Shown: piece after piece, positions 47,012-51,993 of the stretch
Layout: every line of letters starts with the position of its first letter
Position numbering within the stretch: position 1 is the stretch's first letter
Assembly: GCA_963719225.1 (NCBI GenBank)
Contig: CAVRAY010000001.1
Span: forward strand, 64,001 to 128,000
Direction of reading: 5' to 3'
Source of the DNA: Thermoanaerobaculia bacterium
GTDB lineage: Bacteria > Acidobacteriota > Thermoanaerobaculia > UBA5066
DNA length: 64,000 nt
The notes under the pieces: model-generated
Told to the model about the DNA's origin: nothing
Database searches by the model: none
Seen by the model: the letters and a program-made list of their open reading frames with translations, nothing else
Translations under genes and position numbers: made by a program

Positions 47012-47038
47012 TGACTCAGGATGAGGGTGCCATGCCCC

Positions 47039-48340
47039 TCACGAACCCCGCTGCGCTCCACCTTTCACGAACGCCTTCTTGCCCGCGAACAGCGCCCGCT
47101 TCTCAAGCTCCTCCTCGATTCTCAGGAGTTGGTTGTACTTCGCGATCCGGTCGCTCCGGCAGCCGGAACCGGTCTTGAGGTGGCCCGCGCCGACCGCGAC
47201 CGTGAAGTCGGCGATCGTCGCGTCCTCGGTCTCGCCCGAGCGGTGGGAGACGAAGATGCCGTAACCGGCGGCGCGCGCGATGGCGATGGCCTCGAGCGTC
47301 TCGGTCAGCGTCCCGATCTGGTTGAGCTTGATGAGGACGGAGTTGGCGACCTTCTGCTCGATGCCCTTGGAGATGATGGCCGGGTTCGTGCAGAAGATGT
47401 CGTCGCCGACGAGCTCGATCTTCTTGCCGAGCCGCGTCGTGAGCCTCTTCCACCCCGGCCAGTCGTTCTCCGCCAGACCGTCCTCGAGAAGGACGATCGG
47501 GTACTTGCGAGCCCACTCCTCCCACAGCGCGATCATCTCGTCCGAGGTCTTCGCCTTTCCGCCCGACTTGCGGAAGTTGTACAGGCCCTTGTCGTACAGC
47601 TCGCTCGTGGCCGGATCGAGCGCGATCGAGATCTGGCGCCCCGGCTTGTACCCGGCCGCCTCGATCGCCTCGAGGATCACCTCGACCGCCTCCTCGTCGG
47701 AGCGGAGCTGCGGCGCGAAGCCTCCTTCGTCTCCCACGGCCGTGGCGTAGCCGCGCTTCTTCAGGACGCTCTTCAGGGCGTGGAAGGTCTCGATGCCCAT
47801 CCGGAGGCTGTCCGCGAACGTGCGCGCGCCGTGAGGGGTGATCATGAATTCTTGGAAGTCGACGTTGTTGTCGGCGTGACGGCCGCCGTTGATAACGTTC
47901 ATGCACGGCACCGGGAGAAGGCGCGCGTCCTTGCCGCCGAGGTAGCGGTAGAACGGCTCCTTCTTCGAGGCCGCCGCCGCCTTCGCCACGGCGAGCGAGA
48001 CGCCGAGGATGGCGTTCGCGCCGAGCTTCGCCTTGTTGGGCGTGCCGTCCAGCTCGATCATCCGGCGGTCGATCGCGGCCTGGTCGAGCGCGCTACGGCC
48101 GCGCATCTTCGGGGCGATGACGTCGTTCACGTTCGCGACGGCCTTCTGCACCCCCTTGCCGCCGTAGCGTCTCGACTTCACGTCGCGCAGCTCCACGGCT
48201 TCGCGCTCGCCGGTGGAGGCGCCGGAGGGGACAATGGCCCGGCCGAACGAGCCGTCGGCGAGGAAGGCCTCGACCTCGACGGTGGGGTTTCCGCGCGAGT
48301 CGATCACCTCGCGGGCGTGGATGCGGCGGATCACGGACAT
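47039..48340 (-). CDS. eno: Enolase (island-borne)
   Basis: [48 protein letters not shown]. Confidence 0.97.
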
Positions 48341-48352
48341 GGGGTCTCTCCT

Positions 48353-49416
48353 TCAGTTCTTCGTGGCGCCCGGCCGCATCGCGAGAAGCGTCGTGGCACC
48401 GAGCGCCTGCAGGGCGCCGGCGGCGAAGAAGCCGACGGCGATGTGAGCGGGGAAGAGCGACCAGAGGCCGCCGACGAGTGCGCTGGAGACGAAATCGCCG
48501 ACACCGTTCGTCGCCGCCAGGACGCCCATCCCGGTCCCCTTCACGGGTGGCGCGGCGACGAGCGATGGGATGGAGACGAAGGCACCGGCCCGGATGAAAT
48601 AGAAGGGCGTCAGCAGCCCGAAGGTCAGGGTCCGCAGCCGCCGGATCAGGACGTGGTCCTTGCCGACTGTTCCCGCCAGCACCATGCCGATGACATAGGC
48701 CGGGAGCACGGCCTCGCTCCCTGCCCACGACGCGAGCGCGCCGAGCCCGAACAGGCAGAAGAGGAGGAACTTCGCCTCGAGCTCCGAGGCCGGCCGCCGT
48801 AGCTTGCGGAAGAAGCGCGGCGTGAGCCAGGGCAACACAAAGACGAGGCGAACGAGATCCCCGCAAAAACGAGGGTGCGGACGGTAAACGGCGCGAAAAT
48901 CAGCCCCAGCGCGAGCACGGTGCCAAGGTCGTTGATGAAGCAGGCCGCGAGCAGGGTCTTGCCGTAATTGGTGCGGTTGAGCCCGAACTCCAGCATCACC
49001 GCATAGACGACGGCGACCGAGGTCGTCGAGAGCGCGACGCCGGCCAGCCAACTCGGCGCTACGGCCCAGCCCAGCAGCCAGTGCGCGGCCGCGCAGCACC
49101 CAGAAACGGAGCGGTGAGAAGACCGGCAGAGGCCGAGGCGGCGGCCTCTTTCCACTTCGCGCGGAACACCTCCGGGATCGAGTTCGGCGCCGGCGAGAAA
49201 GGTGAGGACGATCGCGCCCGCGCCGGCAAGGAACATGACCCAGGCTGCCTGCGTCCCGAGCGACCGCGCCGCCGATCGCCGCGCCGATGGCAAGCTGGGC
49301 GACCGTCCCTACGACGATCTCCGACAGCGCCGCGGCGATGCGTAGCCAGATCGAAATCAGAGTGGCCAGAGCGCCAGGCCCAGCCAGAGCGCCGCGAGGG
49401 ACCAGACTTCGGTCAC
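48353..49416 (-). pseudogene. Frameshifted cation:proton antiporter fused to an MFS-like C-terminal remnant
   Basis: Fragments in different frames: MTEVWSLAALWLG, FLAGAELDP, ALSTTSVAVVY, FINDLGT, TPFYFIRAG; tail GTGMGVLAATNGVGDFVSSALVGGLW is MFS-like. Confidence 0.8.
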
Positions 49417-50140
49417 GGCTTCGGCGGCGCGGGTTCCGGCACCGTGTGCGCGACGTACTTCACGACGGTCACGTCCGAGATCGCGATGAGACATCCCTCG
49501 GTGACGACCGAGTCGAGCGCGGCGAGGAGGGCTTGATCTTCTCCTCCTCGTCGATGACGGTGATCATGATCGGGTCGTCGCTCGAGAGCGTGAGCGCGTG
49601 ATCCTTGTGGAGCCTCTTGTGCGCGCCGTAGCCGAGGATTCCCTTGTAGACGGTGGCGCCCGCGATGTCGAGCTGCCGCGCCCGTTTGACGATCGTCTGG
49701 TAGAGCGGCTCGCCCTCCCACTTGTCGTTCTCTCCGATGTGGATCCTCCGCATCTTCGCTTTCCCGACGAGCCGCACGAGGTCCTCCTTCTCGCTCGGCG
49801 CCGCGGCCTCCTGCCCGGTGCCGAGCTTCACAATGTGGGTGTCCTGGTCTCCACGAGCCCCTTCTCGACGATGTCGTAGACGTCCGCGAGCACACGGTCG
49901 ATCGCCTCGGGGGGTCGACGACGTCGATCCGGACGGGGGCGGCATCGCGCCGTCCATCTGGTCGACCCTCTGGATCGTGCCGCGTCCGGTGAAGCCCGCG
50001 AGTGCACGCGACACGGTCGCGCCCGCGAGCCTTCGGTGGCGGAAGAGGACGAGGAGCGCGTTGTAGACGCCCTGCCCTTGCCACCGGTCGGCCTCGTTCA
50101 CCGTGATGATCAGCTTCTTCGCGGGACCGGGGTGGAGCAT
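49413..50140 (-). pseudogene. Frameshifted tandem DUF190 (PII-like) protein
   Basis: Two domains with GATVSRALAGF and GATVYKGILGYG; reading frame switches near 49930, 49850 and 49530. Confidence 0.8.
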
Positions 50141-51905: not shown

Positions 51906-51925
51906 CGGAGACCTCCTACCTTACT

Positions 51926-51974
51926 GGTAGGAGTCATCAGCCCCGGAGGGCAGTTCCGGCGGACTCCATCGCCC
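51926..51974 (-). ncRNA. Fluoride (crcB-motif) riboswitch
   Basis: GGCGATGGAGTCCGCC-GGAACT-GCCCTCCGGGGC-TGATGACTCCTAC: P1, P2 and GGAGTC/GACTCC pseudoknot match the fluoride aptamer consensus. Confidence 0.92.
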
Positions 51975-51984
51975 TACTGGGCTT

Positions 51985-51993
51985 AGGTTAGCA
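51985..51993 (-). promoter_or_regulatory. Extended -10 promoter for riboswitch operon
   Basis: TGcTAACCT ~10 nt upstream of aptamer 5' end. Confidence 0.5.

Follow-up and report, generated by a model that had tools for sequence, protein, structure and literature searches.

The 64,000 nucleotides (nt) analysed here, referred to as the window, are positions 64,001 to 128,000 of contig CAVRAY010000001.1 from a Thermoanaerobaculia bacterium of the phylum Acidobacteriota (assembly GCA_963719225.1, genome G000 below), and contain an operon in which a fluoride riboswitch stands directly ahead of a gene for a dynamin-like GTPase. The GTPase gene is followed on the same strand by a DUF190 gene, the remains of a cation/proton antiporter fused to the tail of a major facilitator superfamily (MFS) transporter, and an enolase gene (Table 1). 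The aptamer matches the Rfam model RF01734 with 55.7 bits (gathering score 34, E 9.6e-13), and the TTG start codon of the GTPase gene is found 15 nt past the end of this match. The protein carries a Dynamin_N domain at residues 58-216 (E 3.8e-27; PF00350 95.8 bits against a cut-off of 27). The genes are tightly spaced: the DUF190 ATG comes 17 nt after the dynamin stop, DUF190 and the antiporter overlap at GTGA, and 12 nt precede enolase. An original prediction for this DNA had named a consensus fluoride aptamer before an intact dynamin, an intact enolase downstream and tight co-directional spacing, and had proposed a search with the Rfam fluoride model as a check; all of this stood, the Rfam match lying above the gathering score.

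The pair of riboswitch and dynamin occurs twice in G000, each of its two fluoride riboswitches being directly ahead of a dynamin of this group. The second riboswitch lies at G000:C1:3279180-3279242, its dynamin paralog is 56% identical to the window GTPase, and these two riboswitch-led dynamins are the only dynamins of the genome. Related loci were collected by similarity to the query, 80 from genomes and 80 from metagenomes, each set being the top 80 among more than 580 matches, and 50 proteins were aligned; RNA searches over many genomes were run with stricter filters. At least 37 of 50 genomes (L008-L057) have a same-strand Rfam switch within 6 kb upstream of the gene, 12 of them within 500 bp, against a chance expectation of 0.06 for the 50 genomes; opposite-strand switches number 4. 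A riboswitch model of our own, built from 16 leaders and applied to further loci, found a switch in 27 of the 30 remaining genome loci (24 of the 27 outside the training set) and in 43 of the 80 metagenome loci; where the upstream sequence of a metagenome locus reaches 4.5 kb or more, the count is 32 of 38.

An even sample of 151 genomes from the window's own phylum, G000 included, was also searched, and match positions were compared by hand. The dynamin group is present in 27 of these genomes with 31 matches, 28 of which are preceded on the same strand by a switch no more than 5 kb away (15 of them by one no more than 200 bp away); two of the other three, in G103 and G164, run into a contig end, and the third, in G109, is genuine. 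The group is found in 25 of 46 riboswitch-positive genomes compared with 2 of 105 without a riboswitch hit (G074 is counted only among the 46 riboswitch-positive and the 71 crcB-positive genomes). Since the dynamin lies behind a switch in 24 of the 46 riboswitch-bearing genomes, it is among the commonest riboswitch targets in this sample. Dynamin_N genes outside the group served as a control: there are 18 of them, spread over 16 genomes of the sample, and none has a switch on its contig; the 14 genomes holding only such genes gave no switch hit. A Dynamin_N match at E <= 1e-8 is absent from 110 of the 151 genomes. In a second phylum, that of G002 (151 genomes), a switch lies within 1.4 kb in 8 of 13 gene-bearing genomes and five are without, while all 7 genomes with a dynamin at E < 1e-90 have one. 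The survey of dynamins behind riboswitches that had been proposed at the outset therefore came out in favour of the link. Going by named records, the group occurs in Acidobacteriota, Methylomirabilota, Binatota, Gemmatimonadota, Verrucomicrobiota, Bacteroidota and Pseudomonadota; a profile search gave 3383 cluster representatives at E <= 1e-30, more distant dynamins included. The dynamin group is found almost only behind fluoride switches, and we consider it very probable that the window dynamin belongs to the fluoride regulon.

The aptamer structure is well conserved among 16 related leaders, in which the P1, P2 and pseudoknot pairs are paired in 99.5% of 208 cells and 5 of 13 pairs show changes on both sides. 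Of 500 shuffles, 0 came out as high; the pseudoknot pairs hardly vary. The Shine-Dalgarno (SD) sequence AGGAGG at 51917-51912 (-), 6 nt ahead of the TTG start, is predicted to be held in a hairpin with the 3' pseudoknot strand of the aptamer (SD unpaired probability 0-0.26), and the same layout is present in the leaders of the paralog, L008, L028, L052 and L095, while several other related leaders appear terminator-like by eye. We infer an ON switch at the level of translation, with the GTPase gene as its immediate target; folding predicts its OFF state and did not reproduce the release in the ON state. Translational fluoride switches with sequestering hairpins are already known (PMC12667848). 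A promoter scan did not report the putative -10 element upstream of the aptamer.

Table 1. Features of the fluoride operon and its surroundings, in window coordinates.
Feature	Position	Strand	Basis
tRNA-Met(CAT), integration site bounding the island	52165..52241	-	RNA search
Possible extended -10 promoter element, TG-n-TAACCT	51985..51993	-	by eye
Fluoride riboswitch aptamer (crcB motif, RF01734)	51921..51982	-	Rfam, full model 1-64
Predicted OFF hairpin, aptamer 3' pseudoknot strand with the strand holding the Shine-Dalgarno	51910..51935	-	minimum free energy and centroid fold
Dynamin-like GTPase, 580 amino acids (aa), intact	50163..51905	-	Pfam, conservation, AlphaFold, fold matches
Tandem DUF190 gene (DUF190x2), broken	49413..50146	-	PF02641 twice
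CPA2-type cation/proton antiporter, residues 1-291 of ~409, truncated	48545..49416	-	Na/H-exchanger domain match and alignment
MFS transporter C-terminal ~60 aa (last ~58-70 residues), in-frame fusion to the antiporter piece	48353..48544	-	alignment to L028
Enolase, 433 aa, intact	47039..48340	-	TIGR01060 657 bits, cut-off 300
ArsR regulator, ArsP permease, two small open reading frames (ORFs), DsbD-like gene	43870..46849	-	Pfam HTH_5, ArsP_1, DsbD_2
Direct repeat of the tRNA-Met 3' half, att-like, other island end	43780..43831	-	repeat alignment

The GTPase has an intact set of G-domain motifs, namely G1 GQFKRGKS (62-69), G2 T89, G3 DTPG (156-159) and G4 NKAD (214-217), and residues G62, K65, R66, G67, K68, S69, T89, D156, G159, K215 and D217 are each conserved in at least 95% of 146 relatives. 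An AlphaFold model (pLDDT 84, pTM 0.64) places helices at 24-52, 279-435 and 484-579, which form the neck and trunk bundles. Foldseek matches the model to BDLP, IniA and Campylobacter DLP1/2 (E 2e-18 to 7e-14), and VIA-align to Fzo1, IniA, SynDLP, MFN2, DLP1 and BDLP (Z 24.9 to 20.0), with truncated Fzo1 at Z 24.9 (318 aligned, root-mean-square deviation (rmsd) 6.2), IniA at Z 24.6 (482 aligned, rmsd 42.6, 20% identity) and BDLP at Z 20.0; we read the high rmsd values as reflecting hinge position. The predicted fold is IniA/BDLP/mitofusin-like, with G domain, neck, trunk and a paddle-like tip. In the same relatives this tip, at 474-491, is a conserved hydrophobic stretch flanked by basic residues, with an aromatic residue at 476 in 78%, hydrophobic residues at 474, 477 and 480-482 in 77-90%, and basic residues at 475 in 73% and at 488 in 60%; model residues 431-480, which overlap it, are of low confidence (pLDDT 59-70). 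The tip is predicted to serve peripheral membrane binding. No membrane-spanning segment is apparent in the protein (hydropathy peak 0.97; above 1.6 in 8 of the 146 relatives). The NCBIfam whole-protein cut-offs are not reached (DynA 64/1600, LeoA 27/325, CrfC 29/1146 bits), and there is a weak PADLOC match to LeoA (E 1.7e-17). Neither the window locus nor the surroundings of the paralog hold a second dynamin or partner gene.

Downstream of the GTPase gene, the original prediction of a DUF190 gene and an antiporter/MFS remnant was right as to the identities, with the correction that DUF190 is a tandem gene and that it, too, is disrupted, carrying four -1 frameshifts (near 49950, 49909, 49847 and 49530) but no in-frame stop. 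It is 66% identical to its counterpart in L025 in a frameshift-aware alignment, and we take DUF190 to be a PII-like family and not a transporter. The antiporter piece, 74% identical to the intact L025 protein, has five frameshifts, near 49367, 49261, 49170, 49100 and 48845. The MFS tail shows 60% identity to residues 343-400 of the 412-aa MFS protein of L028, and the point of fusion at ~48544 is, on these alignments, a deletion junction. Among the best 120 of 7999 hits there was no second protein with such a fusion and no intact near-identical antiporter, only the fragment of G000 itself followed by matches of 71-89% identity. G000 has another enolase, at G000:C1:132125-133384, to which the operon's second copy is 57% identical; the operon enolase shows 73% identity to that of the riboswitch locus L025 and matches 176 of 190 conserved columns, inside the range of 28 homologs.

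Whether the breaks in DUF190 and the antiporter are gene decay or assembly error can be argued from both sides, and we lean somewhat towards decay. For decay speak the absence of frameshifts in 67 other genes (~24,000 aligned residues), the fusion by deletion, which cannot be a homopolymer slip, the intact DUF190 and antiporter equivalents that lie by the paralog, and the match of the antiporter piece to only 181 of 207 conserved columns, under all 17 homologs, a score that is depressed by mis-framing near the breaks. For assembly error speak the crowding of nine indels into 1.1 kb while all 531 codons are free of stops, the position of several indels in short homopolymer runs, and the 66-74% identity retained. 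The earlier idea that the two non-transport enzymes stayed intact while transport genes decayed is weak, as DUF190 is broken too and the breaks may stem from local assembly error.

Counts of neighbouring genes in the 80 related genome loci are lower bounds, the ORF filter being crude and some genes missed. At least 37 loci have crcB, 35 DUF190, 16 enolase, 14 an antiporter and 9 USP; MFS, MutS and hyfC occur in at least 7 each and pyrophosphatase in at least 5, two groups of small AAA ATPases in at least 13 and 16, and a longer second dynamin (DYN2) in at least 12. DYN2 or a small helical partner is found in at least 32 of the loci, and one such helical protein, unk10, which is related to unk11, matches the N-terminal domain of DYN2 (E 2e-69). 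The neighbour set is the known fluoride regulon plus new members. Unnamed members of the fluoride operons are exemplified by L124:1651-3813, L032:3022-3564, L125:7720-8142, L161:417-1007, L015:5180-5920 and L115:5171-5986; their kinds are a second dynamin of ~700 aa with an N-terminal helical domain, this helical domain as a protein of its own, in two groups akin to each other, a ~200-aa protein that matched no Pfam family, and a pair of related small AAA ATPases. Because DUF190 travels with crcB, which is present in 34 of 39 DUF190 loci (38 of the 80 loci have neither), its link is more likely with Fluc than with the dynamin, and we rejected it as the partner of the dynamin.

In the window no crcB or CLC gene was found, the only matches of the genome lying elsewhere, and no Fluc or CLC-F gene stands in the operon under the window riboswitch. 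The original claim that crcB/Fluc and CLC-F are missing thus holds for this locus only, since a crcB gene at G000:C1:3281428-3281766, 2.2 kb from the second riboswitch and on the opposite strand, gives G000 a Fluc; an exporter-free organism is thereby ruled out. The one CLC of G000 has GHGTE/GKEGP and lacks the CLC-F signatures. At the resident locus (L007, 7402-12144) riboswitch and dynamin are on one strand, and a CPA2 antiporter, crcB and DUF190, without a riboswitch of their own, on the other. In a genome of the same genus, G145 (L187), crcB begins right behind the far side of the switch, without an intervening antiporter. On plasmid NZ_CP053712.1 of Lichenicola cladoniae PAMC 26569 (L240), a related dynamin is divergent from a riboswitch-led crcB, at 410 aa longer than usual, and USP, the detected switch facing crcB and not the dynamin.

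Across the phylum sample crcB is present in 18 of 27 genomes with the dynamin and 53 of 124 without. The nine dynamin-bearing genomes in which crcB was not found include G067, assembled in 2 contigs and 100% complete; 12 CLC genes in 8 of the nine lack GREGT/V and GEVTP (two G164 genes have GMNLI and one G156 gene GNNLP), and in seven of the nine the dynamin is directly behind a switch. The dynamin usually accompanies export, yet is not bound to a known exporter. A response in place of export, as first suggested, is not supported, given the crcB genes in G000, in the related loci and in two thirds of these genomes; it could apply to the nine genomes without crcB. In G067 and G152, neither of which has a crcB match, back-to-back riboswitches (L200, G067:C2, and L201, G152:C163) lead on one side to a small helical gene and the dynamin, and on the other to enolase.

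The window operon lies on an 8.4-kb island at tRNA-Met (43780-52241) that joins it to the ArsR/ArsP/DsbD-like module. The att-like repeat at its other end is 86.5% identical over 52 nt to 52159-52210, and no integrase was noticed among the ORFs of the island. A gap of 190 nt follows the enolase stop, and the module is probably a separate transcription unit. In a quick tree of 89 rows, from which most DYN2 rows and the odd-numbered genome loci were left out, the paralog groups with the Thermoanaerobaculia loci L008 and L028 and the window copy does not, a placement that fits horizontal gain. The window locus is likely a second, horizontally acquired copy. Plasmids gave only partial and distant matches, in 36 records that each cover less than 80% of the query. 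Several further observations were made nearby. A second arsR-arsP pair at G000:C1:1033034-1034336 adjoins the CLC gene at 1042625. Window positions 37001-38000 have a GC fraction of 0.55 as against ~0.68 around, and a PIN-domain gene at 53479-54137 (-) with a small upstream ORF is probably a VapBC-type toxin-antitoxin pair. At 52322-52783 (+) a peroxiredoxin-like gene, presumably Bcp/AhpC, has an in-frame TGA at the expected cysteine (…DTTG-TGA-TIEA…), giving a 153-aa frame if read as selenocysteine, with a hairpin 3' of the TGA; G000 carries SelA and tRNA-Sec, and the gene likely encodes a selenoprotein.

Our preferred explanation is that the dynamin is a fluoride-induced membrane-upkeep GTPase working beside export rather than instead of it, a proposal we regard as evenly poised. 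In the predicted order of events, the 3' strand of the aptamer would hide the ribosome-binding site in the absence of fluoride, bound fluoride would fix this strand within the pseudoknot so that the GTPase could be translated, and the downstream genes would follow through tight coupling. GTP-driven assembly of the protein on the membrane may then repair or reshape it. Fluoride comes into the cell as hydrogen fluoride (HF), lowers the cytoplasmic pH and depletes the proton-motive force required for export, and membrane-integrity genes rise under fluoride (PMC11139923). Membrane repair could thus protect the proton-motive force and pH, drained by HF entry and needed for export by Fluc, while the antiporter would handle pH and the extra enolase would offset enolase inhibition. 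The middle genes of the window operon are probably decaying, and the resident copy has Fluc, another antiporter and DUF190 beside it. Precedents are found in IniA, which binds acidic lipids through a loop at 480-492 and cuts membrane (PMC6715688), and in DynA, which has a lysine-flanked aromatic paddle and clusters at membrane damage (PMC12998192); both protect membrane integrity (PMC6715688, PMC12998192).

A number of points weigh against this explanation. The proposed membrane-upkeep role is drawn from the fold and the gene context, and dynamins of this fold vary in role, from fission and fusion to phage defence. Most described bacterial dynamins act as pairs; DYN2, the small helical partners (unk9, unk10, unk11) and the ATPases AAA3/AAA7 are without a match in the G000 genome. 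The gene is missing from 21 of the 46 riboswitch-bearing genomes and is accordingly optional, the G109 gene has no switch in the 8 kb of upstream sequence available, and genomes that are kin cannot count as independent. In the quick tree the riboswitch-linked proteins do not come out as a single clade (2 changes, open fork). When the pseudoknot strands were kept out of the folding and P1 was enforced, most of the SD paired with downstream sequence, the unpaired probability being 0.03-0.12 at 4 of 5 bases in this mimicked ON state.

Of the other explanations, the most serious is that the GTPase is an export accessory, which clusters, inserts or turns over Fluc, or an MFS/CPA transporter, rather than repairing bulk membrane. 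The frequency of crcB in the related loci, often in the same operon, and its higher share among genomes with the dynamin than among those without are in line with it, and a title cited in PMC12998192 states that IniA is needed for efflux pump activity. The nine dynamin genomes without crcB, G067 among them, and their CLCs without the two signatures argue in the opposite direction, as does the fact that DUF190 tracks crcB and the dynamin does not. We consider this explanation unlikely.

The crcB-less genomes also bear on two readings that dispense with the exporter. One, for which we see a small chance, is that a dedicated fluoride-response dynamin subfamily protects independently of export, fluoride turning on the gene and, as metal-fluoride imitating the GTP transition state, also driving membrane assembly that seals against HF entry or proton leak or sheds fluoride-loaded membrane; if true, the dynamin would be the main riboswitch-controlled defence in genomes like G067, without Fluc or the CLC-F signature. 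The other, which we hold to be slightly less probable again, is that the protein is a direct target of fluoride: together with MgF3- or AlF4-, GDP would trap the G domains, and fluoride would both induce the gene and trigger or freeze membrane assembly, with an AAA ATPase recycling trapped assemblies and an exporter unnecessary for protection. Such trapping is established for dynamin-family G domains (GDP-AlFx structures are among the fold matches), the catalytic motifs are conserved in nearly all relatives, a small AAA ATPase is present in at least 29 of the 80 loci, and seven of the nine crcB-less genomes have the dynamin directly behind a switch. However, IniA is monomeric with GDP-AlF4- in solution (PMC6715688), G000 lacks the AAA partner, and crcB-less genomes may hold exporters missed by the searches.

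The remaining alternatives are weaker. Dosage compensation, in which a dynamin poisoned by fluoride is made in larger amounts, as enolase is, was part of the original prediction; enolase and pyrophosphatase are handled in this way (PMC11139923), and the window enolase, being a second copy, fits. For the dynamin it does not fit, as G000 has no housekeeping copy beside the two riboswitch-led ones, and the absence of the group from 103 of 105 riboswitch-negative genomes together with the rarity of Dynamin_N matches indicates that there is no housekeeping function to top up; we judge it very improbable. A similarly slight probability is given to an anti-phage or general envelope-stress dynamin riding in fluoride operons, with fluoride only standing in as a signal of acid or envelope stress. 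Protection against phage lysis is on record for DynA (PMC12998192), the weak LeoA match exists and the window copy is on a tRNA island, but the LeoA and DynA scores fall far under the cut-offs and over 162 loci the neighbouring genes are those of fluoride and pH handling and not of defence. A phage-defence system as such was rejected, the matches being weak and confined to the G domain. That a deletion placed an unrelated GTPase behind an orphaned riboswitch is refuted, since the same pair is found again at the paralog and across two phylum samples, even if the operon does carry a deletion junction, and its probability is practically nil.

No literature joining the fluoride riboswitch and a dynamin was found in a search that left most subscription papers outside. 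In PMC11139923 'GTPase' and 'GTP' have 0 occurrences, and the passages of PMC7266159 consulted hold nothing on such a link; 'dynamin' and 'COG0699' are absent from the text of PMC2864571 and from 8 of its supplementary files, and as 'COG1993' is absent too, the gene tables may be elsewhere. What sets off bacterial dynamins is mostly unclear; the connection would supply a chemically defined inducer for them and a way to assay them directly, by growth, pH and membrane potential in NaF, and L. cladoniae PAMC 26569 is a cultured host with a relative. It also bears on the limits of fluoride tolerance beyond export, an open question and a barrier to engineering organofluorine degradation (PMC11139923).

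The locus can be compared with the known fluoride regulon, which comprises crcB/Fluc, CLC-F, Na+/H+ antiporter, enolase, pyrophosphatase, HAD and formate hydrogen lyase (PMC11139923, PMC2864571) under the same RNA family. The window operon shares enolase, a cation/proton antiporter and an MFS piece with it, and the loci of relatives carry crcB, USP, pyrophosphatase, MutS and hyf genes; the difference is that the first, directly controlled gene is here a dynamin-like GTPase. Among dynamins, IniA (6j72/6j73; PMC6715688) has the G domain, neck, trunk and similar length in common with the window GTPase, like it has no membrane-spanning segment, and is also stress-induced, by cell-wall drugs where the GTPase is under a fluoride RNA switch. 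Its lipid loop lies at a similar place in the chain as the tip, a correspondence not mapped residue by residue, and IniA is encoded in the iniBAC operon and pairs with IniC, whereas the window GTPase has no IniC-like neighbour. The best sequence matches of solved structure are Campylobacter DLP1/DLP2 (5owv_C, E 6.8e-24) and Nostoc BDLP (2j68/2j69; 2j68 E 4.5e-23); the GTPase shares the GxxKRGKS type of G1 with BDLP and is of the same fold class as BDLP, DLP1/DLP2 and mitofusin/Fzo1, but the sequence likeness is confined to the G domain, and the GTPase has a shorter trunk, a single gene and different control. With B. subtilis DynA, which has a hydrophobic-basic paddle and guards the membrane (PMC12998192), and with E. 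coli LeoA/CrfC it shares the bacterial dynamin G domain; it differs from these families in its low NCBIfam scores and in being one-headed. Taken together, the link of riboswitch and dynamin is real and apparently an unpublished extension of the known regulon by a known protein class. Known fluoride defence consists of export, pH control and the making of more of the poisoned enzymes, and the link suggests membrane remodelling as a likely and still undescribed partner of export in it.

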